64,000 nt of DNA from Marsupella aquatica (GCA_973895155.1 OZ316893.1:17490770-17554769), one strand, 5' to 3'; shown: positions 2,315 through 37,074, numbered from the stretch's first letter. Notes: a model not told the origin generated them from the letters alone. Program-made: numbers and translations.

Positions 2315-5300
2315 TGTCACGTCGTCAGCCTTGGCCTTACTCGGGCTTCGGCTTAAACAGGCACATCCTTTGTCAAAATGAGGGTTCGGGCAGGGAGGGA
2401 GGCACGGAATGCACCCAACTTACGTAAAATAGCGCTAAGTGCGCCTATCCTCATATACAGACACCTCCTAGGTATGATTTGTGTTCTGCCGCCGGAACGT
2501 ACCTCAATCGATAGTAGGATCGACCCTAGCTTAAGGGCTTCTAAGCCTTCGTATTGTCCGCCTTCGATCCGGATTTTGGTGATATGGGTGCTCAACCCGG
2601 GCTCGCAACCATGTACACGTGCACCCCGTGCACTACTTGGGTAGTGCATTCGGCCAAGCGTTGGCACCTATACACGAGATTCACACACATACATACGCAC
2701 AAGCATAAAATCTCGATTTACACAAAGGAAATAACGGGAAGGGATTTACTCCATAAGAGGCATACGCGTACACTTAGTTGACCCGAATGCTCTGGAGTGA
2801 ACAGGTCCGAGGCCGAGGGTGTACACTACAATGGAGCCCGGCTCCGCACTCGCCCAACGAGCTTAGTCTTACACCCTCCCCTTGATACTCTTTCATTCCC
2901 AGAGGTCGGGACTCCCCGCACATACTGCGGATGTCCAATACTGAGACTAAAAAAACCCCCTGCCTCTACCGAGGGGTGCACTAAATACTAAGGGCAGAGG
3001 AACGGAGTGTCCTCCCGCCCGAAGATTTGATGACTTAGGTCCTAACTAATCTGACTGTCAGGCCAAAAAACGGTTGTGTCTTATTAGAAGATCCTACCCT
3101 ACGCAGGCTGGACAGCATGGCGGTGCTGCTCTAACTAGGGCAGGTTCCTGTCCCCATAGCCTGATTTAGCTATTCCTAACCCTATTCTATTCCTACTCCG
3201 CCACTAATGCCTGGCACGCTTGCCAGAGCCGCCCGAGTGGGAGCGGCCATCCCGCTGCTTACGAAGTCTGTCATTGTCCGCCTTGAGGAGCTGGACCTGG
3301 TCCAGCAGAGATTCATTCTCTCACTTCGCCGCGTCCGTCTCCTCCGCTGTCTCCTGGCATGCCTCCTCCAGCTACTGGGCGTCGCTCGTCAGATTGCCCG
3401 CCAACTGGTCCTGCTTCTCGGCTTTGGTTTGGAGCCGTGCCACTTCGGCCTATAGCATGGCTATCTCCGCAGTGTTCCGCTGGGCCCGTTCTTCGGCCTC
3501 CTCCAGGTCTTTCTGCCAGATGACAGTTTGATTCTTCAAACTATCAATCTGGTTCCGGAGTCGTGCAATCTTGGCCTTGTTCCCAGCTTTGGCCTATTCG
3601 GCTAGGGCGGTAAGGGCATGCGCCTTCGCTAACAACTCATCGGCAGCTGCAACTTTGGGTCGTAGTTGCAGAAGCTCAGCCTCTTGAGTCGCAACTTCGT
3701 TCTTTAAGTATACGGACTCCACCCGGTACTGCTCTATCCTCTGAAGGGCCTCTGACTGGGCCCGACCTGCCTTTACTGCGGCAACCAACTCCTGATTGAA
3801 GAAACAGGCTACTATCCGGGCCATGAACTCCCCGGTATCCCGGGCAATTTGATGAGAGAAATCTCCCAAAATCCCGTTCAGAAATGTACCCGGTACGAAG
3901 AGTTTCGGGTGGTCCAGGTTGTGCCTCTCCGGAGTTGGGCACGGGCAGACGTCAACACGCGCGGGGGCCGGGGCAGTGACATCCAGCCCTGGGGACGTAG
4001 TGTTGGAAGGGGTTGGAGTGTCCTCCTGCAGCAATGTCCGGTCCTCCGAAATAGCCACCGGTGGGTCTTTGGGAGACCCGGGCTCGAGTAAGGCCTCCGC
4101 TGTCCCGACTTTTGTACTTGGCCCAGCCTGGTTGATCACATCTACGGTTGCGATTACCGACCCATCCGGTACCTCCTCGGCCACGGCTATAGCTACTTGT
4201 GGAGGTGGGGTGGGTGAAGCCTGCGTGGCCGCTGGACTTCGGGCCTCGGGTTGGGGCCGTCTCTCCAAGGCCGGGAAAACCCACCTAGCTGGGACCAGCT
4301 TTGTTATGTTGACACGGGGAAGGGTTCATCGATCAAACCAAGTGTACCACTCGAGAATGATCTCGATGTGGCTAGCGAAATATGCCTTCCCGCCAATGTA
4401 TAGTGTCTTTCTTCGCTGCTCCATCTCTTCATGGAATTTCTTAGCAAAGTACGACGCCCACTTCCTAGGTCGATAGTTCTTGACCTGGATAACCTGGGCA
4501 GCGGAGATCTCCCCCCAGGGTTCCATCATGTGGAGGGCGTACCTTTGGAACTCCAGTCGCTCAGCTATCTCGGGGATGAGGCAGGTCCTCATCACGAACC
4601 CGTTGTCCACTGATCCCTTGGAGGGAAAACTCGAGGATTGGTACTTGGCTCCCTTGCCCCCGAGAGCCCATGATTCGACTCGGTGGTCACCTTCGGGTAA
4701 CCCGAAGATCATCTTGAGCCGTTCTTCCGTGAGGGACATATTCCTTCCCCGCAGCCAAGTATGTTGACGTGCGTCAGCATAATTCTTGACGAATTCCGTC
4801 ATGTCCTCCCCATAGTACTTGCAAGTGTTTCAGGGGAGAGAGGCGAGGTGCTCGAATCCCTGAGTTTTCAGGTACACCGCATGTTTGGGATGGAGGATGT
4901 TTTTATGCACGTTTTCCCCCATGCGGTGCATTGTCACCTTGGCCGCGGCTACCGTGGCCATTGGTAACCCAGATGCAGCAGCGGGTTCCTTCCTCTTCTT
5001 CCCCCGTGACTGGCTCGGGGAGGGTGACACCTCCCCATCCTCTCGATCGGCCATAGGTAATGCTACCACCGTTAGTATTGGGCCCTGGGGCGGCCACGGT
5101 CACCGTGTTGTCTATTGGAGCCGCTCCTTGGGTCCGGACATGGGGAGGGGACGATGTAGTGCCGGCCCCCTGAGTGTTCGCTCCTCTGGGCTGCCTGAGC
5201 AAGGGTGGGGTAGCCTCGTCGTCGTCGCTAAGGTCCACAACGTTGATGATGGAGCGTACTTGTATTGGCGGGGCGATCGGCGGTGTGTGTTGGCTAGGCT

Positions 5301-6308
5301 GAGGCTGAGACTGAAACTGAGCCTGAGTCTGCGTTGGTGCGGGTACGGGTATGGGGTCGACTGGGCCGGCGCCGGCGGTTGAGGGTCTAGTTCCCATGAA
5401 GCTCTGCAGGTGCTGGTAGAAGTTCTCCAAAGCAAGTGCAGACGGCCTTGTCGAACGGGTAGTGCTGGACTCGCTGTTGATGATAGCCCGAACCTGAGCA
5501 GGGATGTGGTCGAAGTGATGTCGTTGCAAGTCGATCGTACCCGGGATATTGAAGACCTCGTCCGGAAGCCGAAGCAATGCTTCCCAGAAACCGATATATT
5601 TGTCTCCGTTGAAGAAATACCCAGATACCTCTGCTGGTCGGAAAATCTCGCTCTGAGATGGGTAGTCAAAGTTAAGGATATAGTGGTGTCATCCTGCTAG
5701 GCGGATGGCTCTCTTGTACTCGTGTTTGATTTTGTATCGGCGCGGGTTGGTGTGTTTCAATGAGTCGGCCAAGTGTCTTCCGGTAGATAGGAACTGCGTC
5801 CAAAATCAAATGGCCGAATTGGAGAGGATTGTGTGCGACATTCAGAGAAGATAGCAGTGGCGACTAAGAGAGAACGAGAGAGCTGGGGTCAAAGCTGGCG
5901 CCTGGACTGATGGACTGGTGCACTACAAAGGGTCGGCTCCCTTTTTATACCTTGAGGGCTCGTCGATCACCCGACGTCTCCTCGTTGCCTATAGGCTGAA
6001 CCGTTCACGCTTATAGTGTACCGGCCACTCTGCCGGTCTGAGTCAGCGCGTGTCAGTGGCCGCTTCTCTAAGTCCGTTATACGGACCCGAGGGAGGGGCC
6101 CCTCCACGCTCGCAACCCGGGCGTGCAAATGGCGACATGCCGCCAGTCCAAACATGAATTCCCTTTATTGACTAATGATTTCCTACTCATAATGGTTACC
6201 TAAATACTGTCGTTATGCTAATAATAGCGGCCTAAGATACCCCTAATGCGCATGCTAAGCGCGGTCTAGACTGAATTACTCATTACTCGCTGTACCGGCG
6301 GCGTCACA
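2315..6308 (-). mobile_element. Family B giant solo-LTR-like unit (3994 bp), copy 1
   Basis: Termini TGTCACG...GCGTCACA (+ strand). Exact TSD CATTG at 2310-2314 and 6309-6313. Flanks rejoin into the family F gag. Confidence 0.92.
3204..5841 (-). pseudogene. Family B LTR-borne ORF (~880 codons): N-terminal HHFDH domain, plant-transposon accessory domain, coiled coil
   Basis: Stitches ORFs 4903-5577, 4830-5069, 4326-4802 and 3594-4268. Collinear with the B copies at 13690-17730 and 43704-49073. Interrupted by stops and frameshifts. TATAAAAAGG upstream at ~5940-5949 (minus). Confidence 0.8.
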
Positions 6309-8549
6309 CATTGTCCTCCTCTCTATAACTCATTATGGAGTGAGAGACACAATCGTGGAACTTGACTACCTTAACACTTAGCTCCGGCGTTGCTGACTCC
6401 GACGCCAAGCTCCCTTATGGTCCAGGCCCGAATAGGCCATCAAGGGAGGACTTAGCATGGGGAGACTTGTGGGCAATGAGACGTGGTGCTAGCAAAGGCA
6501 AGGAGCCAAGCTGGTGACACACACTAAGGACTTGGACTAGCTAAGAGCTGGTTGGGTCAAGGGGAAATGGGTCGGGCTCAAGGACGACTGTCCGGACCTC
6601 CGGATGGACTTTGAGTTCTGAGGGCTTGAGTGTGAGCTCCTCTTGGGCCCAAGGCCAAGGGAGTTGACGCCATGAGCAATGGACGCTTGGGGCGCAAGTT
6701 ATGGCCCGATCCAGGTTGGGCCGATCGGGAGCCCCAAGCGGCAATGAGACCTGAGGACCTAGGTATGAGCACTAGGTCGGCCCAATCACAATGGGCTAAG
6801 GCACTCCGCTTGCGGATGCCTAACAAGAAAGTTATGGGCGTTGCCAGTTGGTGGCACGCCCATTATGCGCAATAGGATGAGGGTTGGGGGCCAATGTTTA
6901 GGGACCAAAGCTGATACGGGGGTGGTAGGTCTCCAGAAGCATATATGAGAGGAGTGGTGTCTCCCTGGGGGCTAAGGGCGAGCCGAAGCCGTGAGCCGCG
7001 GCGGTCGCGACACTAAGGGAAACCGTCAAACGGAAACGGCGATATCTTCCCAACGGGAAATCCGTTGGATAACTTCTTGGGTGCGTTGGAAAAATCTCAA
7101 CAAGGGCTATGCCCTCCTGAGATCAGATGGGTCTGGGGGAACCATGGGTTCTCAAGGTTTGTGGGTGTTAACTCGCCCGCTTGGCAAGTCCTGCCGAACA
7201 GCAGCCAAGCCGCGTTCAGTCTCCCAAGGGAGCTTGCGTTGGGGAGGCAAGGCCAAATAGGTGTGGAGGTTGAGTTCCAAGAGTTTTTGGCCCCTAGACC
7301 ATCAGTGAGGCAAATTGGGAGTTGGTTGCTAGAGTCGGGGCCATTCTGGTCCCTGCGTGTTGGGACAAGCTACGCTATTTGGGCCATGAGCATGTCCTAG
7401 GATCAGGGCGGTCAGTTGGTGATGGGTAGGTACGAGGGGGAACCCGGGCCGCGCCCAAGGAAGGAGTTATTCTAGACAAACAGTGGGCGTGGGTTCTGGT
7501 TCTGGCTTATGGCATCGGGAGGACCTATCGCTGACCTATTTACCAATGTCTGTTGAGCTTGAGTTAGGATGCTAGACTTGGCGAGTTCTAGATCCTGAAG
7601 GGTTACTTACCGAGGTGCTTGGTTGCCTGTGTGGTGCGTCCCATGGCTCCCTAAACCCAAGAAACCCCCCAGCTCAAGCCGATTCCCGTAGGTTTCGTGC
7701 TTGGCGAGGCCGTTTCCGCGGCTTAGCGGCATGGGACGCTGCTAACCTTCTACTACTACTATTAACATTTTACACACATATACTGGACAGATCCTTCATC
7801 GGGTCATGAGATACGTAGCCGGCCTAATATAGGCCTTCCCCTGTCTTCCCCTGTCTTCCCCTCCGTCTTGTTAGGTATGTTTGGATTCCGCCGCCGGAAT
7901 GATCCCCAATAGGCTTGGTTAAGCCGCTAAGACCTCTCTCAGCTCGACACATCCAACTCTCACTCCCCTGCTTACTTTCCTTCCTTCTGTTGATGTGGGC
8001 ACTCTTCACACAAGTTAATGCGACACACAAATAGCAAAATGACTCATTCTGACTGAGTCATACCATGCACTTGCCATACAAACAGTACATCTCATACACA
8101 AGTTCTGCGAACTAAGCCGTGAGGCCAACTCTATTCAGCTCTTAGGCATGAGGAAACATGAATATACACAAGGGTCACTGTATGACTAACCGAGAGCTTC
8201 TCGTACTACTTGATCCCAGCCCGGCTGGTGCAAACTAAAAACTTGCTAAAGAAGAGGCCCTGAGCTCCCCGCTGCCCAGGTACTTATCCTGGTAGTGGAT
8301 CCGCCATTCTTTGCATCGTAAGCCTAATCTACTTAACAGTAATCTACTTGCCCGAATCTACCTATGTACAGCAAGGCAGGAGCACAAGTGTTGCTCCTAC
8401 CAGTGGGACCGCAATCCCACAAGCTAAGTGTCAGGGCCGCTCCTGGTTCTGATCCTAATCCTAAACGTGGAGATCCGCGCCCGCCCTGCCCACTCACGCC
8501 TCCTCCCTCCACGTCCGCCCTCCCTAAAAGGAATGGCGCCCTTGCACCG

Positions 8550-11500
8550 TCACGACACCGGTGGTGGATCCTCAATGGACGCCCCCAACACTTCCTCCTC
8601 AGCCACTGCCGTTGGCCCGCCTACTGACAGATTACCTGCCCTTGACCGAGTCAACTCTCCATCGGCCTGACTGGGTCCACCTTCGGCTTCAGCCTCGACA
8701 CCGGCCTCGGCAATACCCACGGCTTCGGCCTCAGCCACTCCCACGGCTTCGGCTTCAGCCACTCCCTCGGCTTCGGCTTCAGCCACTCCCTCGGCTTCGG
8801 CTTCAGCCACCCCCACGGCTTCGGCCTCCCCTTCCCCTAGGGTAGTTGGATCCTTAGCCGTGACCCTGTCTGGGGTCGGTGCTGGGTCTACCTCCTTGAT
8901 CACCACGGCCTGTGAAGTCGTATTACTCCTTGACCCTGAAGGTTTCCGCTTCTTCTTCGTTGGTGGCTCGGCAGCTGGTCCCTTCCCCTTCCCACTTACT
9001 TCCGGCACTGGTGCAGGTGGCGCGGCTTGTCCTTCGGCAATTACCACCCCTGGTAACTGGTTTGTCCCAACAGGAGATGGACCTGCTGCAGCTAAGCATT
9101 TAAATACTGCGGCTTGTTTCTTCAGCCGCTCTGTTTGGTTGTCGGCCCGCCGCTGTAGGTTCTCCATCTTCCTCGTGATTTCCTCCAACTCCTCTTGGGT
9201 TTCATCCAGGTCCTTACGTGCCCCCTCCAGCTCGTTTTTGGCCTCCTCCTGCTCCCTGTGGGCTTCCTCCAATTCCTTCTTCAAGGTAGCCCTCTCCTCC
9301 TGGGTTGCTCTTAGCTCCTTGTCGAGCTCTGCAATGATGACAGACTCCATCTGGTTCATCTTGGCGTAAGTCTGTTCGAGCATCTCGTCCTTCTCCCTTA
9401 GGTCGGCCTTGAAGCTGGTCGTCAGGGACGCAAGCTCCTGCTGCAGCGCCATAATCCCTTGATAGGATTTCCCTAACTCGACCTCCTTCTGCTCAAGGGC
9501 TCCGCGGATTTTCTTGAGCTCCCCTTTCAACGCCCATTCCTTTCTTTGGGTCTCCGCCATGGCCCGGCTGTTGGCTGTTATGTGGGCCTCCTCTGTATTC
9601 TTCAGCTCTTGCTTCCACTTTTCCCTCTCTTTGATCGTGTCGGCCAACTCTTCCTGCGTCTGAGTCAGTTTATCCTTGATATTCTGATTATCAGCCTGCG
9701 CGGCGTCCAACTGCCCCTGCATGATGTTCAGCTCATGTCGTTTAATCCGCAGTTCATCTTGGGCTTTCTTGGCCGCCCTTAGATCTTCAATCTCGGCTCC
9801 CATCCTCCTAAGCCGCCGAATGACCTCGTCCTTCTTGCTTCTCTCTAAAGCCACCGCTTCTTCTAATTGGTGCTTCTCCAACTGCTCCCTATGGAAAAAG
9901 GGTCCTACCTCCAACTCCTCTCCAAAGATGCCGAGCGCAAGTTCCCCACACATCTCACCATACTCCATGGCTCTATTCTTAGCGTAGGTGGAGTAAGTAG
10001 AAGTGATCGGCATCGCCCATCGTGGCCTCTGCTCCCAAGCCGTCCTGCGGATCTCTTCAATCGTGGCTAGAGGTTTGCTTCCTTTTTCGGCTAGCCGCCT
10101 GATGTCCTCCGACCAATCTCCTCCTGGTAAATCCTTTTCCTTAGCCAGGGCGGCCTCTTCCTCCTGCTTGATTCGCTCCTGAAATTCCTGCACCGTCTAT
10201 TTTATGTCGTCGAAGCTCGGGGGAGCAACATCTGGTGGGGGAGACTCAGGGCTACTCTGCTGGTTGGGGTCCCCTCGCACTACCCTTGGAAGTGTGGGGA
10301 CAAACCGGCCACAGGTCCTTACTCCTGGAACGTGATGGTCCGACCCATAGTCGGAATTATCATGGCTGCAGTCCTCCACTGCCTCCTCTACCTCTTGGAT
10401 TTCCGGCTTCTCCCTCTCCTCTTCCTCGGTAGGAGCTTCAGGCAATTCTGCCTCAGATTCGGAGCTTGAGGTTCCCACGTACATTCGAACACCTGGCTTG
10501 GATTCCGGCCTGATTCTCTCCTTGTCTCCAGCAAAGGGGTTTTCTCTTGTGAGCCGGTGTAGGCCTACCTCTGTAGTAGTGTCCTGCATTGTTGCCGTTG
10601 CCGTTGTTGTTGCCGATGCCGATTTCTTTTCTTTCTCCAGTAGTTTCAGCAGACTCTGCATGCCTGGTTGCTGCATCGGCAAGTCTTCCTTCCTGGGCCT
10701 AAACACCTGCTCGATCGTAGGACTAACAGGTGGTTGAGGCTTCTCAGCCAACGGCCTCGGCGTTGGAGCTTCCTCGGGTGCCCTTACCTGCAGGGGAAGT
10801 ACCGGGGCAAAAGTCTGACCTCTGGCATACCGGCACAACAGCGGCGTGTGATAGCCAAGCCGCGACACGCTCCCCATGCCGATTACCTGCTGCTCCTCCT
10901 TTAAGATCTTCTTCAATTGGTTGAGGAGGTACCCGTTGTAGTCCCGGCTTGGGTCTGGCCTTTCTGCCAGATAGACCTGTGCCTTGCCGATCTCTGCCCT
11001 CGGCAAGTTACAATGCATGGTCACCCGCAAGAAGTCGATCATCTCTCCTATGTGCGGGTTGGTGCAGGTGTTCCGGAAGAAGCCATTCTTCGTTGATGGC
11101 CCGGGGAACGACCGGAACTCCTTGTCAGGCAAGGTCTTCCTGGTATCAACTTTGGTCTTATTGCCCATCGGCAAGCCAAACACTTCGGCAATCATCTTGG
11201 GAGTAAGATAGAAATCCTTCCCATATATCCTCGTGCAATTGGTCTCGGGTTCCCATGACCCCACGAATTCTAATAGGTCTGACTCCGGTACCTCCGGCTT
11301 CAGCCATGGTAATCTTACAAAGGCCTCCAAGCCGGATCCGGCCATGAAGCCTTGGTACTTCTTGGTCTGCATGGCCGTAAAGCATGCATCCTCCTCCCGT
11401 GCAAAATGTAGTTGCACCTCCACCGGTAGGGTTGCCGCCCAGCCCTTCCAGGTGTCATCCCTGGTTGGAATGGCCTTGATGGGATCGACCTCCTCCTCTT

Positions 11501-12260
11501 CGGCTTCTCCCTGCCTCCTGCTCTGCTGCTCGGCTGGCTTCTTTGGTGCCGCCGACCTCATTCTTTTTGCCGGGGTGGCTTCATCGTTGACGGCTCCCTT
11601 CCTCTTCATCTCTGCTGCCGTGGAGGTTTCTCCTAGCACCGTTGCCTGGGTCCACCTTTCCGTGCTACCCTTTAATTCCCAGTGTATGTCGTTGCAGTTC
11701 TTGATGGCCTCTCGGATGCCGACGACGCTGTCTTTGCAAAACAGAAGATCGTCGAGTTGATTGGAAGTAGGCGTCCACAGGAACTCGTCCTTGATGAGTT
11801 CGCCTCCTAAGAAAGCCGTCTTCTGCAGCTCCCACAATCGAGCGAGCTCCTGCCGTTCTCGAGCTGCCCTTTCTGACTCCTCGTCCTCGTAAGTCTTGAT
11901 GTACTCAGTTGCCCGTTCGAACAGGCATCCCCAGAAATGTGCCGCTTGATTGACGTTGCTCATACCCTCCTTAGGTTGATCGTCGGTATCTACTCTCTCC
12001 CCGAGTGCTTGCCTAAGCAGCTGACAGTAGTTGGCCTCCCGTAGTCGTCTGCCTAGTTCGTGCTCGCAAATGAGCCACCATCTCCTGCAAGCGCTCCTTA
12101 CCCCTCTCCTCTGCCGGTCCTTCTTCCCGTTGATCCTTCCTAGCCGCCGACGCTTAACGCGCCCTAACCCTAATCGGGTTTTCACCCTCAGCCTTACCTC
12201 CGGCCTCTGCCCGGGTTCCATGGTTGCCCCTAATTGTTTATATTTTCCTTGTTTTGTCAC
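8550..12260 (-). CDS. Family A LTR-borne protein (~1236 codons, one in-frame TAG at 10197-10199): plant-transposon accessory domain plus long coiled coil
   Basis: ORFs 10197-12260 and 8550-10193 are in frame and separated only by TAG-ACG. Copy 2 has CAG at this codon. Motif GLEAFVRLPW...LLEFV...IYGKDFYLTPKMIAEVFGLP resembles Athila ORF1/Transposase_32-type domains. The true start may be a downstream ATG (12222 or ~11963). Confidence 0.8.
8680..8830 (-). repeat. 24-bp coding tandem repeat (AEAEA[E/V]GV)n
   Basis: About 5-6 units of CGGCTTCGGCYTCAGCCACTCCCW, seen directly. Absent in this form from A copies 2 and 3. Confidence 0.85.
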
Positions 12261-12539
12261 TATACTAAGGTGTTCCTAGGGTGCCTTCCTGCTTTACCCA
12301 CTTAACCGGCCGAGTGATTCCTGTCTAGGCATCACAGCCTGTGCAGACAGTGAGGACCGTTGAGTAGAGGTCATGTTGGAGAGCAAGTGCGGCTTTGTAT
12401 GGGAGGGGCCGCTGGCGGTGCAAGGGGCACTAGGGTGCTTGCTCAAGGTATTCCGTGGAGGCGTTCGGGCACCAGGGGTACTTAGGCGTGAGTGCTGGGA
12501 TTGGTGAGGGCGCTGGGTGGCTAGGTCCACCACTGACAC

Positions 12540-12793
12540 CTATCTTTGGTGTGTCTAGGAGCTCCACAATGATCACATTGTTGCTGATCAGGTGCTGAGG
12601 CCCCTCCTAGCCCTCTATGACCAGGGAAATATTGCTACGCATGATCCCCACCAAAGGTCCAACATCCTAACTGCTGTCTAGCATAGGAAGGCACAAGTCT
12701 CTGATTTGTAGAATCCCATGTAGTGGGTTTCTCCCTTTGGCTCTTACGTGCAGTAGGTTGTGATGTGGGTGTAGATGCAGCCTTTGGTGCCTC
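12540..12793 (-). pseudogene. Family F gag nucleocapsid segment with CCHC zinc knuckle
   Basis: My translation gives ...GCWTFGGDH...QQQCDHCGAPRHTKDRC. It continues across H into 6314-6345. Confidence 0.75.
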
Positions 12794-15103
12794 CGTCACG
12801 CCGTAAGCTTCGTCCTTACATGGATTTTGGCTTAGACGGGCATAATCTTCATTAGCTTTGAGGGATCAGGCAAGGAGGGATGTGCAAACTGAACCTTACT
12901 CCCGTAATCTAGTGCTAAGTGCACCTAGTCCTACTTACAGAAATGTCATGGGTATAGTTTGTGTTCCGCCACCAGAACGTACCTTAAGTCAATAGCTGGA
13001 TTGACCCCAGCTTAAGGGCTTCTAAGCCTTTGTGCTGTCCACCTCCAATCCGGATCCGATGATACGAGTATCCAACCCGGGCTCACAACCACTATCCATA
13101 GCCGACACCCCGTGCACGGCTCGTATAATGTGTTTGGCCAAGCATTCTCTACCCATATACGAGATTCATACATGCAACTGAACTCACAAGCATTCAATCT
13201 CGGTTTACACAAAGGAAATGGTGGGAAAAGACTTTACTTCAGAACCCGTCATACACATACACATAGTTGACTCGACATCTCTTGAGTGAACAGGCCCAAC
13301 GGCAGAGAGGCGTACACTACAACGGAGCCCGGCTCTGCACTCGCCCAACGAGCTTAGTTGTACCCTCCCTCCTTGGTGCTCTTTTACTCACAAAGACCGG
13401 AACTCCCCGCACATACTATGGATGCCCGGTTTTGAAACTAAAACCCCTTGCCTCTACCGGGGGGTGCACTAAATACTAAGAGCCGGGGCTCGGAGCGGCC
13501 ACGTGCTTGAATCTATGTTATCCAAGATTCTAAACTTTGCTAACTATTAGGCCGTAAAATGGCGTGTCTTACTCTAACATTCTAACTACAAAGGTTGGTC
13601 GGATAGGACAGCGCTGCTAACTAGTTTTGGCGCTTGTCCTTATTGTCTAACTACCCTACTCCTAACTCTATCCTAAACCTACTTCGCTGCTAATGTCTGG
13701 CACGCTTGCTAGACCTGCCTGAGTTGGATTTGGAGCGACCATCCCATTGTCTCCTGAGCCGGTCGGCGTCCTGCTTGAGCAACTGGACCTGGTCCAGCAA
13801 AGATTCGTTCTCTCACTTCACCGCATCCGTCTCCTCCGTGGCTTCTTGGCATGCCTCTTCCAATTGTTGGGCGTCGCTCGTAAGCTTGTCCACCAATTGG
13901 GCCTGCTTTGTGGCTTCTCCTTGAAGCCGTGGCACTTCTGCCTTTGGGGCGCCTATCTCGGTTGCGTCTCGCTAGGCCCGGGCGTCGGCCTCCTCCACAT
14001 CTTTTTTCAGATGGCGGCTTGTCCCTTCATACCGTCAATTTGGGTTTGGGGCCGTGCAATCTCGACATCCTTCCCAGCTCTGGCCTGTTCTGCCAAGGCT
14101 GCCCGGGCCCTAGCTTTGACCACCTAATCTTCTGTGGCCGCTAACTGAGGTCAAAGCAGTTGAAGTTTGGTCTCCTGGGCTAAAACTTTATCTTTCAGGT
14201 GGGTAGACTCAACCCGATACCGCTCTATCCTCTGCATGGCCTCAGCCTGTGCAAACCCTACTTGCACGGCTGCAACCAATTCCTGGTTGAAGAAGTAGGC
14301 CACATTCCATGCCATGAACTCCCCAGTATCTTGCGCAATTTGTTGGGAGAAGTCACCCAGCGACCCATTCAAAACCGTGCACGGTGCAAAGAGTTTTGGG
14401 TACTCCAGATTATGCCCACTTGGGTTCGGGCAAGGGCAGACCCAAGCTCGCGCGGGAGTTAGAGTGGTGACATCCAGCCCTTAAAATATGACGGCAGAGA
14501 GGGCTGGGTTTGCACGGGATGAGCGGTTCTCCTGGATAGTTGTGGAGGGTACCGAGGTGTCCTTTGTAACCAAAGTCTCGGGCCCGGGGCCGGCTTCTGC
14601 TAGCCCGGCTTTGATGGTCGCGCTAACCTGGTTGATCAAATCCAGGGTCGCGATATCCGCATCGTCCGGTACAGACAGAGGGGCGGCAGCAGCTGGTTGT
14701 GGGGCCGGGGTAGTCGTGGGCCTCATAGCCGCTGGACTTCTGGCCTTGGGTTGGGGTCGCCTTTCCCGGGCCTGGAATACCCACCGTGATGGGGTTAGCT
14801 CGGGCTCGTTGAGCCGAGGGAGGCTTTGGCAGTCAAAACGGGCATACCACTTGATGATTATTTCAATGTGGCTTGTGAGGTATGCCTTTCCGCCGAGGTA
14901 CAAGATCTTTCTTCGTTGCTCCATCTCCTCGTGGAACTTCTTGGCAAAGAACGAAGCCCACTTCCTAGGCCGGTAGCTCTCGACCTGGATTACTTGGGCG
15001 GCGGATATCTCGCCCCTTGGCTCCATCATGTGGAGGGCGTACCTCTAGAACTCCAGCTGCTCCGCTATCTCCAAGATAAGGCATGTCCTCATCAAGAATC
15101 CGC

Positions 15104-16501
15104 TATCGTGGAGAGTTTTTGTTTAGTAAGTTCCTCCTAAGTATAGCTTAGTAGTATAGGATAGTAGTTTGAATTCTCGCATTATATGCAGTCTATAGTG
15201 TGCATGCTACCGTGCACGACTTACAGTGTGCATGCTACAGTGTACGATCTATAGTGTGCATGCTACAGTGTACGGTCTACAGAGTGCATGCTATAGTACA
15301 CGATCTACAGTATGCATGCTACAATGTACAATCTACAGTGTGCATGCTACAGTGTACTGCCTACAGTTGCTCCACTCACGTAACTACTAGCACACTTACT
15401 TGCCTTGGATATGTGACACATGGCTTCCATCCGTGTGCCATGCTTGATCCGTGTGCTTGAGGTGTGAGCACTATAAATAAAGAGGAGAGGGGCTTTCTCC
15501 CCTCACTCCCCATCTTTCATCAACTAAGTTGTGAAGTCTTAAAAATCCATTGGACTTGATGACCTCCTCTATGAATATAATCCTTATGAAGTAGACCCAC
15601 TCATACACGCTTGCTTAGAGCTTTGGCTCGGCCAGAGATATTTTGTATGAGTTGGACCTTCAAAAAGTGTTATCATTTGATAGGAGATGGTTATTAAGTC
15701 CTAAAGAGTTGCAAAGTGCTCAGCAATACCTTAACATCATATGCTACTTTTGGATGAAACCCTTATGAAGTAGACCCACGCATGCACGCTGGCTTGGAGC
15801 TTAGCTCAGTCAATGGTAATTTGTATGCGTTGGACCTTCAAATAGTATTTTCATTCAAAAGAAGATAAACTTATTAAGATAAACATCTGCATGTATATAC
15901 TTAGAGTTAACTCAATGCATAGTATTTATTTGAATGAATAATCTTGTTCGTTGAATGATTCTAGATCTTGTCATTAGAATGAATATTAGTTGGATGGAAT
16001 ATTTGATAGTACAATAATGCCTAGACTAGTACCTGGTCTTCCTCTCCCTAATCCTTTCCTTATTAGAATTCATGTACTCCAAAAAGAGATAATGCGTCAG
16101 CATATGACTTTTCACTTTGGAGAAACATTTGCAACTGCAGTGTTAAATTCAATAGAGCCACTTGTATACCCTTATGTAGTTTACGGGGAGGATTGGGCTT
16201 GCACAATTTTTATCTTGTATTGAGATGAATCTCAACAAACCTCCCTCCGATGAATCTTCCATTTCTTTCTCGTTGGGAGATATTTGTTTTGTGACTCGAC
16301 CCAAGGTAGCTACCGAGGAGGCAATAGTCCGTAGGTATGGAAAAAAGGGTTATGTTGTTGTGCTTTCATCCACAGAACCATTCTTTGTGGTGTCTGCTAC
16401 CTAGTCTAGAATAGTAATCATGATTTTAACTTAAGTTCTCTCTTGACACTAGCAGCCATAGGTCCGGTGCTTCCTCAAGGACCACATTTTCCCCCCAGAC
16501 A
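15104..16501 (+). mobile_element. Family E solo-LTR-like insertion (~1.4 kb)
   Basis: Interrupts the B ORF at the DNGF motif. Flanked by CCGC(T)/CCGT(T). Ends ...CAGACA. CTATAAATA at ~15471. Internal duplication 15581-15700 vs 15760-15880. Confidence 0.7.
15197..15365 (+). repeat. 28-bp tandem repeat x6 (AGTGTGCATGCTACAGTGTACGATCTAC)
   Basis: Read directly. Each unit is two related 14-mers. Lies upstream of the TATA box. Confidence 0.9.
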
Positions 16502-18191
16502 CCGTTGTCTACTGCTCCTTCGGCCGAGAAGCTAGAGGACTGATACTTGGCTTCCTTGCCCCCGGGAACCCGTGATTCCACCCGATTTACTCCTTTGGGT
16601 AGGCCGAAGATCATCTTGAGCCGTGCCTCGCTGAGGGACATTACTCTTCCATGCGCACAGGTTTGTTGGTGGGCCTCCTCAAAGTTCTGGATGAACTCCG
16701 ACATCTCCTACCCATAGTACCTGCTAGCATTCCAAGGGAGAGAGGCAAGGTGCTCAAACCCTTGGGTCTTTAGGTAGCATGCATGCTTGGGGTGGAGAAT
16801 GTTCTTGTGGACATTCTCCCCCATGCAATGCATGGTCAGCTTGGCCACCGCAACTGTGGCCAAAGGCAGCCCAGATACAACCGCGGGTTCATTTCTCTTC
16901 CTACCCTGAGACTGGTTTCCGGGGTGACTTGTAGAATGGGACATCTCCCCGTCCTCTCTATCGGGCGGCGGCAGCGCTACCGCCGTAAGTACTGGTGCTA
17001 GGGCTGCCACTATCACCATGTCATCTACCAGAGCCGTCACTCGAGCCTGGGCTTGTGCGGGTGGTGACATGTTGCCTGGCTCGTGTGTGCTTGCCCCTCA
17101 AGGTCGCCAATGTAGGGGAGGATGAGCCTCTTTGTCCTCGAAATTGATGTTCACCGCGTTCACCACGAATCATGCCCAAAGGGGTGGTGCAACCGGTGGT
17201 GGAGATTGGCTTGGCTGAGGCCGAGGTGGTGTTGGTGAGGGCACCGATGAGTCGGCAATGGTTGTAGCTGGAGGAGGCGCCATAAGATTTAGCAAGTCTG
17301 AGGTGAAGCCGAGTGAGGTCAGGAAGGATGTCTCACCCGTATCTGCGTTACCAAACTGATAGTCTATGGAAGCTTGAACTTTGGCGGGGATATGGTCAAA
17401 GTGGTGCCGCTGCAAGTCTATCATGCCTGGGAGTGTGAAGACCTTGTCCGGAAGCCGAGGAGCGCTTCTTGGAATCCGACGTACTTTGGACCATCAAAGA
17501 AGTATTTCTAGATCTTGTTGGCTTGACAAAGCTCGCTTTGGAACGGGAGGTTGAAATTGCCGTTATAGTGAGAGCGCTCGGCTAGGTGGATGAGTCGTTT
17601 GTACTGCCTTTCGGTTTTGTACTGGCGCGGGTTGACTTTGGCCAAAGACTTTGCTAAATGATTTGCGATTGATAGAAATTGAAGCCAAAATCAAAGGGCC
17701 AAACTGGACATATATAATCATGACAGACATACAAGAAACGGCGGTGGATGACTAAGGAGCAAATGAGCAAGCTGGGATCAAAGCTAGCGCAAGGAGTGAA
17801 GTGTTGATGCTTTGCAAGAGAATGGCCCGCCTTTTATACCCCGAGGGCTTGTCGGATGAACGGCCCCTTCCTCTTTCCAATAGGCCAATCCTTTCACGCT
17901 TGTAGTGTACTGGCCACTCCGCAGGTCCGGGTTAGAGTGTGTCAGCGAGCCGCCCCCTTGAGTTGTTATACGGACCCAAGGGGGCATCCCTACACGCTTG
18001 TAACCTAGTGGTACAAATGGCGCTCCGCCGCCAGCCCAAGCGTAAATGCTCCTTTAATGATGTCCTAGTTGTGATTACTACCTACTTTAGTATCGTTATG
18101 CTAATAACTACGGACTACTATGTCCATAGCACGCGTGCTAAGCACGGAGTAGACCGGATCACTCATTAACCGCCGTGCTGGCGGCGTCACA

Positions 18192-19169
18192 CCTTCCTTG
18201 GCAAATCCGGAAGTCACCACTTTCTCATTTACCATATTGAGCTCAATGCGCTCAGAAAGTGTAAAAACAACTGCCAATGTGGGATTTGCATCTCTAAGTA
18301 GAGTGACATCTCTCACTCTATGTTTTTGACCAGAATTGCATACCAAAACTAGACTGCTTGAGCCTCTGTCACTCCCTTGGTGACAGTGATCAATCTGCGC
18401 ATACAAGTGTATGCCTCACATAGACTCTCTCCAGTCTTGCGCTGAAACTCTTGGAGACCTTCAACTTATCAGTCCTCACACCTTGATAGTTATGCTTCAA
18501 TACCTCAAAGAACTCCACCACAGGCTTAAATGCTGGCGTAGCTCCAGCCCCTGCCACAATTGCACCGGTAGGAGTAGCGGTGGATGCTGTTAGAGTGGTA
18601 CTAGTGGATGGTGTGCCACTCTGGCTAATGCTGCTAAAAGAAGCAGCAGCTGTGGCAATGGGTTGGCCCGTGGGTTGGGCAGCCACACTAGTGCCATAGG
18701 TGATGGACACATATTAATTAGGCGACCAATGCTGCCTCCATGCCTCAATCTCAACCAAATGAGCCTTCCAAAACTCATGGTAATCATCCATGGGTGGCCC
18801 CTCCAAATGCTGAAATAATCCATTCCATGCCATGAAAGGGATAAACAACATGACATTGCCCAATGTCTGCATATTGCACCACGTATCAAACTCATGGATG
18901 AAGTCATCCAGATCAATCATGCCAACTACACCAGAGTATTGCCATGGGCCCTTCGTAGCCCCATACATCTCTTCCATATCCCACAACAAAGGTGCAATCA
19001 TCTGATGATGAGGAGAATTGGTCATAGAGTCCTCGTCAAAATCACTATCTGAAGCTACACTGCTAACTGCTACCAATGTCCTTGGCCAAAATTGCACCCC
19101 ACTCCGAGTGAGACTGGTTTGCTGTCCATTGGGTAGCCCCGTAGCACCAGAAGAATCCGTGATGACCAA
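18192..19169 (-). pseudogene. Family F gag N-terminal/capsid region
   Basis: ORFs 18714-19169 (LDDFIHEFDTWC...LFQHLEGPPMDDYHEF) and 18390-18710 are in frame across one stop. They lead through the insertions to the zinc knuckle and protease. Confidence 0.65.
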
Positions 19170-19259
19170 TCACTCAAACCGTTGCCATGAATCTAATCTA
19201 TGTGCTAACCCTAACGGGGAAATCTGTCCTTGCTAGCACCGCAAGCACTCACCATGGTG

Positions 19260-20939: not shown

Positions 20940-23900
20940 TGGTGTGACAGAACACTTCAGTTGGACTAACTCCCAATGCCAATGTATCTGTTGCTAAAAA
21001 TAATGGGGTGCGCACAATGTTAGTGGCCGCCCCCAGCAAGGTGCTTGCTAGCCCTGTTGCAACATCATCCGATTCTACCGACTTATCAATGTGGTGCGTC
21101 CCATGGCTCCCCAAACCCAAGAAAACCCCCTTGCTCAAGCCGATTACCACAGGTTTTGTTCTCGGCGAGGCCGTTTCCGCGGCTTAGCAGCATGGGATGC
21201 TGCTAACTCTCTTTCTACTACTATTAACATTTTACACACATATATTGGACAGATCCTTCATCGGGTCATGAGATACTTAGCCGACCTATTCTAGGCCTTC
21301 CCTTGTATTCCTCTCTTGGTCTTCCATTAGGTATGTTTGGATTCCGCCACCGAAATGATCCCCAATTGGCTTGGTTAAGCCGCTAAGACCTCTCTCAGCT
21401 CGACACATCCAACTCTCACTCCCTTGCTACTTCCCTTCATTGATGTGGGCACTCTTCACACAAGTTAATGCGACACACAAATAGCAAAATGACTCCTTCT
21501 GACTGAGTTATACCATGCACTTGCCATACAAACAGTACATCTCATACACAAGCTCTGCGAACTAAGCCGTGAGGCCAACTCTATTCAGTTCTTAGGCATG
21601 AGGAAACATGAATATACACAAGGGTCACTGTATAACTAACCAAGAGCTTCTCTTACTACTTGATCCCAGCCCTGCTGGTGCAACTAAAAACTTGCTAAAG
21701 AAGAGGCCCTTGACTCCCCGCTGCCCAGGTATTTATCCTGGTTGGGGATCCGCCTGATTCCTTGTAGCGTAAGCCTAATCCACTTACTGTAATCTACCTA
21801 ACTGTACAGCGAGGCAGGAGCACAAGTGTTGCTCCTACCAGTGGATCCGCCATCCCACTAATCTAAGTGTCAGGGCCGTCTCCTGGTCTTGATCCTAATC
21901 CTAAACTTGGAGATCTGAGCCCGCCCTGCCCACTCACGCCTCCTACCTCCACGTCCGCCCTTCCTAAAAGGAACGGCGCCCCTGCACCGTCACGACACCG
22001 GTGGTGGATCCTCAATGGACGCCCCCAACGCTTCCCCCATAGCCACTGCCGTCGGTCCGTCCTTTGACAGATTACCTGCCTCAGACCGAGTCAACTCTTC
22101 ATCGGCTTGACTAGGTCCACCCTCGGCTTCGGCTCCAGCATCGGTCACGGCCTTCGATACGGCTTCGGCCTCCTCGGCATGTTCTAGTGGAGGATCCGGT
22201 ACCTCGGCTTCATCAATAGCTGTCCCGGCCTCGGCCTTGCCATCCCCACCTTCTTCAACAGGTGGATCTATTGCCGTAATCATGCCGGAGGTTGGTGCCG
22301 GGTTGACCTCCTGGGTCACAATGGCTTGGTAAGCCGTATAACTCCCAGACCCATAAGGTTTCCGCTTCTTCTTCTTCTCGTTTCGGTAGCTGGTCCCTTC
22401 CCCTTGCTACCTACCTCCAGCACTGGGGCGTGTGTCTCGGCTTGTCTTTCGGCCAGTACCCCTCCTGGTAACGGAGTTCCCACAATTGGAGTTGGACTAG
22501 ATGAAGCTAAGCACTTAAATACTGCGGCCTGTTTCTTAAGCTGCTCTGTTTGGTTGTCGGCCCGCCGCTGTAAGTTCTCCATCTTCCTGGTGGTTTCCTC
22601 CAACTCCTCCTGGGCTTCCTCCAGGTCCTTCCATCCCTCTTGCAGCTCCTTTCTGGCTTATTCCAATTCCAATTTTAAGGTAGCCCTCTCCTCCTGGGTT
22701 GCTCTTAGCTCCGCTACGACCTCAGACTCCATCTTATTCATCTTGGCATAAGTCTGGTCGAGCTGGTCGTCCTTCTCACGCAGGTCGGCCTTGAAGCTGG
22801 CCGTCAGGGACGCAAGCTCCTGCTGTAGCGTAATAATCCCTTGATAGGATTTCCCTAACTCGGCCTCCTTCTGCTCAAGGGCTCCACGGATATCCTTGAG
22901 CTCTCCTTTCAACGCCCTCTCCCTTCTCTGAGTCTCCACCATGGCCCGGTTGTTGGCGGTTATGTGGGCCTCCTCTATGTCCCTCAGCTCTTGCTTCCAC
23001 TTTTCCCTGTCCTTGACCGCGCTGGCCAACTCTCCTTGGGTCCAAGTCAGTTTATCCTTGATAATCTGATTGCCAGACTGAGCGGCATCCAATTGTCCTT
23101 GCATGATGTTTAGCTCATGCCGCTTAATCCGCAGCTCATCTTGGGCTTTCTTAGCCGCCTGCAGGTCTTCCACCTCGGCTTCCATCTCCCTAAGCTGCCG
23201 GATGACCTCGTCCTTCTTGCTTCTCTCCAAAGCCATCGCTTCTTCTAATCGGTGCTTCTCCAACATCTCCCTCTGGAAAAAAGGTCCCTGCTCCAACTCC
23301 TCCCCAAAGATGCTGAGCGCCAGGTCCCCACACATCTCCACGTACTCCATGGCTCTATCTTTAGCATAGGTGGAGTAAGTAGAAGTCATCTGCATCAACC
23401 ACCTCGGCCTCTATTCCCAAGCCGCCTTGCGGATTTCTTCTACGATGGCAAGAGGGTTGCTTCTTTTTTTGGCAAGCCGCCTGATGTCCTCCGGCCAATC
23501 TCCTCCTGGTAAATCTTTCTCCCTAGCCAGGGCTGCTTTCTCTTCCTCCCTAAGTCGCTCCTGAAATTCTTGTGCCATCTGCTTTATGCCGTCAAAGCTC
23601 AGGGGAGCAACCTCTGGTGGGGGAGACTCGGGGCTACTCTGCTGGGTGGGGTCCCCTCGAACTACTCTTGGAAGCATGGGGATAAATCGGCCACAGGTCC
23701 TTACTCCTGGAACATGATGATCCGACCCATAGCCAGAGTTATCATTGCCGGGATCATTGCTGTAGTCCTCCACCTCCTCCTCCACTGCTTGGACTCCCGG
23801 CTTCCCCCTCTGTTCCCCTGGTCCTACCATGAAAACGGCCTCACAGATCACAGGCTCTTGTTCCTCCTCTGGTTTCCAGGTTGTCCTCTCCCTCTGCTTT

Positions 23901-26395
23901 CCGCGGGAAGGAGCCTTAGGCTGCTTTGCCTCCAATTCGGGGCTTGAGGCTCCCACATACATTTGCACTCCCAACTTGTGTTCCGGCCTCCTTCTCTCCT
24001 TGGCTCCGGTAAAGGGGTTTTCCCTCCTGAGTTGGCTTAGGCCGGCCTCTGGGGCAGTGTCCTGTACCGGTGTCGTTGCCGTTGCTGGTGCCGTTCTCTC
24101 CTTCTCCAGCAATTTCAGCAGATTCTGCATGCCTGATTGCTGCATCGGCAAGTCATCTTTCCTTTGCCAAAACACCTGCTCGATCGTAGGACTAGCAGGC
24201 TGGTTGGGCTCTTCTGTTGCCGGCCTCTACTCCGGAACCTCCTCCGATGCCCTTGCCGATAGGGGAAGTACTAGGGCAAAGATTTGACTTTTGGCATACC
24301 GGCACAACAGCGGCATGTGATAGCCAAGCCGGGACACGCTTTCCACGCCGATCACCTGTTGTTCCTCCTTCAAGATCTTCTTTAGTTGGTTGAGGAGGTA
24401 CCCATTGTAATCCCAGCTTCGGTCTGGCCTTTCTGCCAGGTAGACCTGAGCCTTGCCGATCTCTGCCCTCGGCAAGTTACAATGCATGGTCACCCGCAAG
24501 AAATTGATCATCTCTCCGATGTGCGGGTTGGTGCAGGTGTTCCGGAAGAAGCCATTCTTCGTTGATGGTCCTGGGAACGACCGGAACTCCTTGTCAGGTA
24601 AGGTCTTCTTGGTATCAACCTTGGTCTTATTACCCATCGGCAAGCCAAACACCTCGGCAATCACCTGGGGAGTGAGATAGAAATCCTTCCCATACACCCT
24701 CGTGGAATTGGTCTCGGGTTCCCATGATCCCATGAATTCTAATAAGTCTGAGTCCGGCACCTCCGGCTTCAGCCATGGTAATCTTACGAAGGCTTCCAAG
24801 CCGGATCCGGCCATGAAGCCCTGGTACTTCTTGGTCTGCATGGCCGTAAAGCATGCATCCTCCTCCCGTGCAAAATGTAATTGCACTTCCTCTGGTAGGT
24901 CGCCGTCCAGCCTTTCCAGGTATCATCCTTTATTGGAATGGCATTGATGGGATCAACCTCCTCCTCTTCGGCTTCTCCCTGCCTCCTGTTCTACTGCTCT
25001 ACTGGCTTCCTTGGTGCCGCCGACCTTGTTCTTTTTGCCGGGGTGGCCTCTTCGTTGATGTTTCCTTTCCTCTTCATCTCGGCTGCCGTGGATGTTTCTC
25101 CTAGCATAGTTGCCTTTGTCCACCCCTCCGTGCTACCCTTCAACTCCCAGTGCGCGTCGTTGCAGCGGTTGATGGCTTCCCAAATGCCGATGATTCTGTC
25201 TTCGCAAAACAGAAGGTCATCGAGCTAATTGGCAGTAGGAGTCCACAAGAACTCGGCCTTGATGAGTTCTCCTCCTAAGAAGGCAAACTTCTGCAGCTCC
25301 CATAGTCGAGCGAGCTGCTCTCTCCGATTCTTCGTCCTTGTAAGTCTTAATGTACTCAGTTGCCCATTCAAACAGGCATCCCCAAAAATGTGCCGCTTGA
25401 TTGACGTTGCTCATACCCTCCTTGACTCGATCGTTGGTATCTGCTCCCGCCCCGAGTGCTTGCCTAAGCAACTGATAGTGGTTGGCCTTCCATAGTCATC
25501 TGCCCAGTTTGTGCTTGCAAATGAGCCACCATTCCTCGCAAGCGGTTCTTACCCCTCTCCTCCTCTGGTCTTTCCTCCCGTTGGTTACCCCTAGCCGCCG
25601 ATGCTTAGCGCGCCCTAACCCTAATCGTGTTCTCTCCCCCGGCATCCTTACCTCCGGCCTCGGCCCGGGTTCCATAGTCACCCTTAATTGTTTATATTTT
25701 CCTTGTTTTTGTTACTATACTAATGTGTTTATAGGGTATACCTCCGGTTTCCCCACCTAACTGGCCTAGTGATTCCTGGCTAGGCATCACAATCAACACT
25801 TGGATTTGTCGTAACCAGGTTCATAGAGGTAGTGTGAACTGCCTCTAACAATGTAAACAATTGGGGAAGCTTTGTTTGATGACAAGCCTCCCCCCTTTGA
25901 GGATCCAACTCTACCATTGCTCCTCAAGGCTCAAGGCTCAAGGGGTTTGGTTGCTCCTCGAGTCAAAATTGCCAATGCATCAACATGGGCAGTGCCACAC
26001 ATGAATCCCATGGTGGCTAAGTCTTCGTCAACTCCATGAGATGTAGAAGCTCCATCACCAAAAGTAGGTCTAACCTAAGAACTGGCCATGGCAGCTAGTT
26101 GTTGCTCCAATTGAGCAAATCTTTGCCTCCTTTGGATCTATGGTAGTGGTAGGAGCATCACCTCCTTGTCTCCCTACATGTGGCATACCTTGGCTGCAAC
26201 CACCACCTCTACCTCCTCTTCCCTGATCATACGTATGCAATTCTCCCCGTCGTAGTTCAAGATGGAGTATAAAACACCTATCCTTGGTGTGATCCTAAGG
26301 TCCACAATGATCACATAATTGTTGATCGGGCATAGATGCCCCTCTGGACCCTCTATTATTTGGGCAATATCTTTGTGTATGATCCCCACCACAAG
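20940..26395 (-). pseudogene. Second family F gag/protease-linker fragment, split by A copy 2
   Basis: 20940-21084 plus 25797-26395 align to 1700-2310, 6314-6345 and 12540-12660. Confidence 0.7.
21090..25791 (-). mobile_element. Family A giant solo-LTR-like unit (4702 bp), copy 2
   Basis: Same termini as copy 1. Exact TSD ATCAA at 21085-21089 and 25792-25796. ORF broken into pieces from 21990 to 25681. Confidence 0.95.
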
Positions 26396-29300: not shown

Positions 29301-29620
29301 TTGGTGGCTTGGGAACTTCCATGTTAACAACTACTGGTGGAAGCTTGTTCACCGTTACTGGTGGAACATTTGTCGGCTTGGGTAATGAATTTATCCACTT
29401 TTTTGCATTATCCATCACAAACTCCTCATCAAATGCAATTTTCTTGTCAAGCCAAACACCTGACTCTGAAGATAGGAATCCTGCCTTGTCAAGTAGATTA
29501 TTTAAAATCCATGTCACTAGGAATGTATAATTCCCTTGGTGTTTATGGATACTAAGCTTCACATATTGAAACCCATACATTATATGAAGTGGAAGAATCC
29601 CCTTCACTCCTGCAATCACC
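26396..29620 (-). pseudogene. Decayed spliced gene: ParB/Srx-like motif plus beta-class N6/N4 DNA-methyltransferase-like C-terminus
   Basis: FLAISGQHSARAAKW (28357-28953) and NPHAKP...IIQTLSKPGDLILDFFFGG (26480-26590). Intron-like segment 27838-28425 (CAG|GTGAG ... TGTAG|) filled by repeats. Stops and frameshifts present. Confidence 0.55.
27905..28410. repeat. 78-bp tandem array (~6.5 units) with hairpin core TTGGATAGAGA-CCA-TCTCTATCCAA
   Basis: Core starts at 27913, 27991, 28069, 28147, 28225, 28303 and 28381 (period 78). Confidence 0.92.
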
Positions 29621-33561: not shown

Positions 33562-33849
33562 AAAGAGATATGTGGTTCACCTTCTCAAGCTACGTCCACG
33601 GGAACACACAAGAGATCTTTACCAAACTCTAAGCCCATCGGCCATACCAAGTCTCCATAGTGTAAGCTCTCCTTATCTCTCAAGTAGCTCCGTAACAATG
33701 AGCCTTAGTTCCACTTAGTACATCGCTTAGGATATAATGTGCAACTTAGTTAACCTAACCATCATGTCTCCAACTTTGGTTAGCCTAACTACGGTTACAT
33801 GTTGTAACCCTAGACCTAAGAGTAAATACCTAACGAATACTACATTGCC

Positions 33850-36166: not shown

Positions 36167-37074
36167 TAATACCATCTTTCATGACTTGTTAGACCAAAGA
36201 GTGGTAGTCTTTATTGACAAAATCCTGATCTACTAAAAAATGTTGGAGGAGCATGAGCAAAGGGAAGTATTCTCTTGCCTTTGTAAGGCTCGTCTCTTTG
36301 CTAAACCTAGCAAGTGCGAGTTTGCAATGAACAAGATTTAGTTCCTCGGCCATACCTTCACCCCAAAAGGGATTACGCGTAGTCAGGACAAGCTTAAGGA
36401 GATCAAAGAATGGGGATGCCCGTCCAATGTAAGGCAGGTTAGGGATTTTGTAGGATTTATGGGGTTCTATTGGAGATACATGAAAGACTATGCAAGGATC
36501 GCAAGGCCCCTAAATTCGCTAATGTTGAAAAACAAGGTGTTTGTGTGGACACGGGATTGCAAGTTAGCATTCTTAAAACTCAAGCGGCTAATGATAACGC
36601 CGCCAATTCTAAAGTTACCTGAGATGGGAAAGTCGTTTGAGATTTAGACAGGCGCAAGTGATTATGCCATTGGCGCCTGTCTTCACCAAGATGGGCGTCC
36701 TATGGCCTTTGAGTCATGTAAGTTGGAAATCATTGGATCACCTTGGAAAGGGAAATACACGTTGTGATCTATGCGTTGAAGAAGTGGGAGATTTACTTTA
36801 AGAACGGTCCCAAGGTGATAATACACACTAGATAGCTCGCCGACCAGGTACTTTAGTTCTAAGCCAAGGCTGAACCCCAAGGAAATGCACTGGCAGATGT
36901 TCTTGGCGGATTTTGATTTTGAAGTCTGTCATGTTCCTGGGAAGACTAACACAACAGCTGACACTTTATCGCGTAGGGACCATCATTGTGTCAATGGGAT
37001 CACGATGCTCAAATCCCAGTGGCCAAACATTCTGGCCGAGGCGTATGGGGATGACAGGTTAGCCAAAGAATGGC
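36167..37074 (+). pseudogene. Ty3/gypsy pol fragment (RT C-terminus and RNase H)
   Basis: VVVFIDKILIY, KPSKCEF, FLGH, F.G..GFYWRY..DYARIARPL, ASDYAIGACL.Q, HVPGKTN..AD.LSR motifs, with stops. Confidence 0.9.

Follow-up and report, generated by a model that had tools for sequence, protein, structure and literature searches.

A probable giant long terminal repeat of the bryophyte Marsupella aquatica with a conserved accessory gene and a predicted VANC21-like core

We analysed a window of 64,000 nt from Marsupella aquatica (GCA_973895155.1 OZ316893.1:17490770-17554769), the whole stretch to which all positions below refer. Our subject is a 4.7-kb repeated unit, represented by a 4,707-bp copy at 7630-12336 with minus-strand polarity (family A copy 1), most of which is taken up by one long open reading frame (ORF). 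We favour the reading, with reasonable confidence, that this unit is the long terminal repeat (LTR) of a bryophyte non-chromovirus Ty3/gypsy retrotransposon, and that the LTR carries a selected accessory gene whose product likely counters silencing.

LTR-type ends, target-site duplications and a putative primer-binding junction

Copy 1 has TG...CA ends with short inverted termini and lies between exact copies of GCCTG (7625-7629 and 12337-12341, plus strand), as the preliminary description of this sequence had stated. An exact 5-mer match of the flanks is expected by chance about 0.001 times, and its length falls in the 4-6-bp range of LTR target-site duplications (TSDs). The empty site occurs in contigs of all four public runs (10, 10, 3 and 1 contigs), where the flanks are joined directly and 4,712 nt are missing, equal to the unit with one of its TSDs; the GCCTG duplication is therefore a real insertion mark. 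The copy-1 target is itself a high-copy repeat. The host of the insertions of family A, and of a related family B described below, is a decayed gag-protease-type element on the minus strand (955-2314, 6309-7629, 12337-12796 and 18192-19200), with an ILDTGA motif near 1440 and no Pfam match, and a second copy of it harbours copy 2 of family A (20951-21085 and 25799-26400).

Self-BLAST of the window gave three further minus-strand copies. Copy 2 (21090-25791) is 83-85% identical to copy 1, has a broken ORF, and is flanked by ATCAA on both sides, bearing out the earlier report of a different TSD. Copy 3 (41328-52863), 67-79% identical to copy 1, belongs to a divergent subfamily and is split by a nested insert at 43242-49968. 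Copy 4 (41-955) is a partial copy retaining the 5' end only; it had been overlooked in the earlier inventory, which was otherwise right in listing three copies. In run X2, one joint leads from 10840 to 7630, from the unit interior back to the unit end, and may represent a copy inserted in another copy.

The two terminal 1.5-kb stretches of the copy-1 unit have no repeat in common, and no gag or pol Pfam family was found in the frames of 7630-12336, both in agreement with the preliminary description; nor were gag/pol-type families found among the 149 of 181 short window frames that were searched. These comparisons bear on whether the units could be internally deleted elements, resembling large retrotransposon derivatives or terminal-repeat retrotransposons in miniature, whose short LTRs have eroded and whose ORF is simply an extra ORF of the usual internal kind. 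An internal position is the rule for extra ORFs (PMC7264820) and the size of 4-4.7 kb would suit such elements, but the two ends are dissimilar in all four units tested, the ends are well conserved between copies, and the primer-binding site (PBS) lies outside the unit. We consider this explanation extremely improbable and rejected it for want of end direct repeats in the four units.

Read on the minus strand, the end of copy 3 gives way to TTTT and then to TGGCGCTAGATGGAGGGG (41306-41323), a PBS-like sequence putatively of tRNA-Asn type. The preliminary description had placed a tRNA-Asn PBS here in lieu of a TSD; a PBS-like sequence does begin 4 nt past the copy. An Rfam search returned 0 matches. 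The spacing agrees with the rule, given in PMC6317226, that the TGG of a PBS lies 0-5 bp downstream of the 5' LTR.

Contigs of public runs X1, X2, X3 and X7 were mapped onto 40940-41540. Summed depth, which is not copy number, was 160,793 (X1), 455,346 (X2), 360 (X3) and 0 (X7, which had no coverage of the junction) in the PBS bin, compared with 311,000-440,000 (X1), 793,000-1,035,000 (X2) and 570-610 (X3) in the best-conserved LTR bins. At position 41333, five bases inside copy 3, the letter of copies 1 and 2 accounts for 160,408 of 162,019 depth (23 contigs) and, in a second set, for 198,142 of 204,391 (33 contigs). Because depth around this position declines on going into the LTR, it is the PBS that anchors these contigs. 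The letters at 41333, together with four X2 contigs that extend from the junction into the sequence of copy 1, show ends of the copy-1 type attached to this same PBS. The PBS junction is abundant and not a single occurrence.

Past the PBS, the contig layout indicates the start of an internal region that is multi-copy in the runs (41130-41305, minus strand). It continues for about 180 nt, until an opposite-strand pol fragment near 41130 (Pfam RT_RNaseH_2 at 36342-36644), and no continuation was found elsewhere in the window. We saw neither a paired LTR nor a gag-pol belonging to family A within the 64 kb. No polypurine tract (PPT) is present at the four family-A 5' ends in the window, as expected if these are solo or 5' LTRs. 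Considering the TSDs, the empty site and the PBS junction, with no pair, PPT or gag-pol seen, we interpret copies 1 and 2 as likely solo LTRs, and copy 3 as the likely 5' LTR of a truncated element. The 4.7-kb unit is thus very probably an LTR, and the earlier solo-LTR interpretation gains support from the TSDs, the empty site and the abundant LTR-end/PBS junction with copy-1-type ends.

Alternatively, the units could be free non-autonomous cassettes, reverse-transcribed or excised and then integrated singly by a borrowed integrase. Such an origin would account for five units with matching TSDs of which only one has a PBS in the window, and for the lack of a paired LTR or PPT there. It is difficult to reconcile, however, with an abundant unit-end/PBS junction that runs into a multi-copy internal region, or with a unit that has no internal repeats, PBS or PPT for its own reverse transcription. 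An excess of solo LTRs over full elements is, moreover, ordinary, with a ratio of 2.6:1 reported for Retrosat2 in PMC3485330. We regard free cassettes as very improbable.

The accessory gene and its predicted product

The minus-strand frame of copy 1 (12275-8550) spans 1,241 codons from stop to stop; counted from its first ATG it has 1,223, which amounts to 78% of the unit. It contains one in-frame stop (10197-10199), where 90-100% of the contig depth in each of the four runs differs from the window; the stop is therefore likely a minority state. In copy 2 the frame has six stops and three frameshifts, and 8 of the 11 indels are multiples of three. The first ATG was rejected as the start. Codons 1-86 from it lack constraint, with ratios of nonsynonymous to synonymous differences (pN/pS) of 1.24, 0.74 and 1.12 in three comparisons and stops common to copies, while codons 87-170 are constrained (pN/pS 0.15-0.24) and Met87 is kept in all four copies. 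For this reason the coding part likely starts at 11963 and extends to 8550 (1,137 codons, 72.5% of the unit, with the one in-frame stop), and 11964-12221, open in frame from the upstream ATG yet unconstrained by pN/pS, is a likely 5' leader. The preliminary description had proposed a single frame of about 1236 codons covering some 80% of the unit and persisting in solo 'gene cassettes'. The long frame is there, and it is as a frame that it is retained in the likely solo copies; its coding part is probably shorter, it is not intact in copy 1, and all four window copies are broken or partial.

Nei-Gojobori ratios of nonsynonymous to synonymous divergence (dN/dS) are well below 1, as the earlier reading of a functional ORF had predicted. 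The value for copy 1 against copy 2 is 0.35 (1,180 codons, confidence interval 0.29-0.42; core 0.13), and the comparison of copy 1 with the 5' part of copy 3 gives 0.23 (core 0.14). Shifted frames used as a control gave 0.9-1.4, and the antisense frame that shares third positions gave 0.33-0.39. This substitution pattern argues that the gene is almost certainly selected as a protein. Near its 3' end, a 24-bp tandem repeat (8702-8828) encodes an AEAEGV-type tail whose length varies between copies.

The product contains a conserved globular core, aa 182-381 (10821-11420, minus strand; dN/dS 0.13-0.14), with a predicted VANC21/plant mobile domain (PMD)-like fold. Downstream lies a helical segment rich in E, K and R (9100-9870, minus strand, approximate limits), which is likely a coiled coil; heptad-like windows occur at aa 701-950, with a sub-threshold Pfam match to ATG16. 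Structure modelling covered the unbroken core only, so that the prediction once proposed for the repaired protein is available for this part, where it yields a fold like that of VANC21, at 9-10% sequence identity. A first core model (predicted local distance difference test score 66) had no Foldseek match in the PDB. That model did match BFVD A0A890CAY5, an unnamed 805-aa entry (E 0.006, prob 0.97, template-modelling score 0.33), which might be a Metaviridae accessory protein. We predict from the modelled core that the product is a DNA-binding protein of the VANC21/PMD fold.

Pfam, run on 129 long frames, gave no informative family for the accessory ORF beyond sub-threshold coil matches, and PDB sequence searches gave nothing below E 0.9. 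A HMMER search over representative proteins returned 21 matches; the alignments exclude four of these (P0005, P0006, P0018 and P0021), which are multi-stretch and repeat-like. The hidden Markov models (HMMs) of PF10536, PF03078 and PF04195 matched none of 21 members at E<=5 and none of 22 proteins at E<=0.1, and a lead in the Atlas reached 0.86 only; an Atlas search with the window's core domain gave no usable match. Searches for homologous proteins found 0 matches with the N-terminal half and 2 with A2. In metagenomes and viruses, the DNA pattern had 0 hits, the protein scan 0 confirmed of 74, and the viral search 0 of 5. An env-like protein was rejected, as the ORF has no transmembrane segment (maximum 19-residue Kyte-Doolittle mean 0.98). 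Among candidate target words in the family A 3' parts, no 6-mer exceeded shuffled sequence, a hand-picked set of TAG motifs was mildly raised, and there was neither a convincing 7- or 8-mer nor a tandem target array.

The modelled fold tips the balance slightly toward counter-silencing over another accessory role. The same gene in the same LTR could instead help to tether integration to its site, to bring the pre-integration complex into the nucleus or to activate transcription from the LTR, which is possible though the less likely option. A single solved relative was found, and it is an anti-silencing factor; the combination of domain and coiled coil resembles that of VANC21 (PMC13547354), and location in an LTR with a likely promoter of its own fits a trans-acting factor made apart from Gag-Pol.

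Gene placement, a proposed mechanism and related families

Two TATA-like boxes frame the gene. The preliminary description had noted the downstream one, which we confirm: ATAAGTA at 8281-8287 (minus strand) lies about 260 nt past the stop, reads ATAAATA in copies 2 and 3, is followed by a pyrimidine run about 30 nt downstream, and is a candidate LTR promoter. A second box, overlooked there, is TATAAA at 12242-12237 (minus strand), present in three of four copies (CATAAA in copy 3); it is a candidate promoter of the accessory gene, whose leader would then measure about 250 nt. The non-coding 3' part (7630-8549, minus strand, 920 bp), likely promoter, repeat region (R) and unique 5' region (U5), is more conserved than synonymous sites (divergence 0.09 and 0.21 versus dS 0.37 and 1.1). 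Near the 3' end it contains a 40-nt motif (7872-7910, minus strand) that recurs with unchanged orientation in families B and D (z 4-6 for A1 and 26-35 for B-D) and is not found in family C.

We think it likely that the gene lies in the unique 3' region (U3) and not in R. Some observations weigh against this placement. TATA-like boxes precede the gene in all three complete families (nt 95 in A, nt 354-360 in B, nt 177 in C), and their conservation in the sequence would allow a layout with the gene in a giant R, in which a promoter at the 5' edge drives both a short mRNA polyadenylated in the same LTR and, by read-through, a genomic RNA with two copies of the gene. The unconstrained leader before the Met at 11963, the lack of an ATAAATA-type box after the stop in family B, and a 3' part rich in TGTA/GT runs, typical of plant polyadenylation regions, point the same way. 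Set against them are the conserved ATAAATA of family A past the stop with its pyrimidine run 30 nt downstream, a Gag that would lie more than 4 kb and one long ORF away from the cap, and the need for a 4-kb strong-stop DNA, which would be unusual. A gene in R is thus an unlikely alternative and, like another accessory role, is compatible with the unit being an LTR.

With the gene in U3, its transcript would start from a separate promoter close to the 5' edge (TATAAA at 12242) and end at the polyadenylation site of the LTR, and genomic RNA would start at the downstream TATA-like box near 8285. Reverse transcription would copy the gene into both LTRs, and LTR-LTR recombination would leave it in solo LTRs, of which copies 1 and 2 are likely examples. 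The arrangement may have arisen from a sense extra ORF of the Athila/Tat type that lay ahead of the 3' LTR and was taken into U3 through an upstream shift of plus-strand priming. The core may bind a family-specific DNA word and the coiled segment may oligomerise. The protein would act in trans and shield its family from host silencing; intact solo LTRs would therefore keep supplying it.

A profile search with the core found nine domain pieces in the window, and they reveal related units. Those of family B are about 4 kb long, with TATAAAA and a CT-rich leader upstream of the ORF. Copy 1 of family B (2315-6308, minus strand; 3,994 bp, TG...CA ends, CATTG on both sides, TATAAAA at nt 360) has the same core domain in a broken ORF; a second copy (12797-18191) is broken with an imperfect TSD, and a third is the insert that splits family A copy 3 (43242-49968, TSD ATGCC). 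Family C (37075-41102, minus strand; 4,028 bp, TG...CA ends, ATGGC on both sides) has an ORF at 40690-38261 of 810 codons with one stop and a different C-terminal domain, and hhalign supports homology of its core (P 93%, E 3.5e-7). The family C unit is inserted in an integrase region. Family D (about 31270-33700, plus strand) is 5'-truncated and combines core domain, coil and a B-like 3' part. Family E (46019-48754, plus strand; 2,736 bp, TG...CA ends, TSD AAGGG) is a gene-less relative whose ends resemble those of family B and which has the shared 3' motifs, with no frame above 97 codons; this unit is nested three levels deep.

Core identity between families is 22-25%; the layout must therefore be an old one, preserved while the families diverged over a long time. 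The N-terminal parts of A and B have no BLAST similarity. We tentatively propose a broader scenario, at somewhat less than even odds, in which an old bryophyte Ty3 clade moved a VANC/PMD counter-silencing gene with its promoter into the LTR, solo LTRs are working trans-acting anti-silencing genes, families A-D each have their own DNA word, and family E rides along.

Other parts of the window contain apparent DNA-transposon remnants. Broken minus-strand ORFs at 26177-29600, interrupted by a 78-bp tandem array (27912-28405), end in a piece with a near-threshold N6_N4_Mtase match (E 8e-6) and possibly belong to a DNA transposon with a methylase fragment. Transposase-like ORFs with DUF7869 (E 9e-43) occupy 54522-55734 (minus strand), and Cys/His-rich frameshifted ORFs at 58713-60767 (minus strand) resemble a DNA-transposon transposase, with no Pfam match above threshold.

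Relation to known systems and implications

By comparison with described elements, an OTA/Athila-like affiliation is the best reading. PMC6317226, PMC7264820 and PMC11963269 list Athila ORF1 (PF03078), Ogre PMD (PF10536) and Retand Transposase_28 (PF04195) as OTA extra ORFs, and give a tRNA-Asn PBS in 12% of Athila, 15% of TatII and 4% of Retand elements. The unit resembles OTA elements in its 5-bp Ty3-type TSD, in LTRs of up to about 5 kb, and in having a large accessory ORF in which SMC-like coils accompany a PMD-like domain. However, OTA ORFs are internal, placed either ahead of gag or in the interval from pol to the 3' LTR, and have Pfam families, whereas the family A ORF, without a Pfam match and from a bryophyte host, is enclosed by the TG and CA ends, which puts it on the same side of the PBS as the LTR, and is retained in solo copies. 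The finding is real, and we read it as an OTA-type accessory gene, with a predicted VANC/PMD fold, that was relocated into the LTR.

VANC21 is encoded by VANDAL21, a Mutator-like DNA transposon (Mutator-like element, MULE) of Arabidopsis (PDB 9LNK/9LNJ; PMC5735166). Its carrier is thus a MULE of a eudicot, whereas family A, with TG...CA ends, a 5-bp TSD and a neighbouring PBS, is most likely a retrotransposon of a non-eudicot. MAIN and MAIL1, PMD proteins acting in silencing, belong through VANC to the same structural family (PMC13547354), although the family A core has no HMM match; they are host genes of angiosperms, in contrast to the transposon-borne gene described here. PMC5418596, which describes MAIN and MAIL1, also reports gypsy-encoded PMD-A clades and speculates on anti-silencing by MULE-borne PMDs. 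Retrosat2, RIRE3 and RIRE8 (Tekay, grasses) have LTRs above 3 kb (3.2 kb) and an ORF0 upstream of gag-pol, according to PMC3485330. They share with family A the long LTRs, many solo LTRs and an extra ORF; unlike family A, they are grass-specific chromoviruses, and ORF0 is treated apart from the LTR.

A literature search found no plant LTR-internal gene, subscription papers being outside its coverage. Accessory genes in or overlapping U3, and copied into both LTRs, include MMTV sag and lentiviral nef. These belong to vertebrate retroviruses and encode immune-related membrane proteins of about 200-320 codons, whereas the family A gene has about 1,140 codons, encodes a soluble protein and resides in a plant.

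The extra ORFs of plant retrotransposons are placed in the internal region, with a function described as unknown, in PMC7264820 and PMC11963269; a VANC21-like fold offers a concrete, testable role. VANC proteins have been proposed to be captured MAIN-like host proteins of dicots (PMC13547354). The presence of VANC-like folds in LTR elements of bryophytes would speak for PMD-type factors as an older pool carried by transposons. If the broader scenario above holds, VANC-like factors would also belong to retrotransposons of non-vascular plants, separate from the MULE system of eudicots and probably earlier than it. In annotation with standard LTR finders and gene predictors, such units would come out as host 'hypothetical proteins'. 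With a gene of about 1,100 codons wholly inside the LTR, a solo LTR would be a retained gene and more than a promoter remnant. If our reading is correct, LTR-LTR recombination, the main route by which the host deletes these elements, would leave working anti-silencing genes behind.

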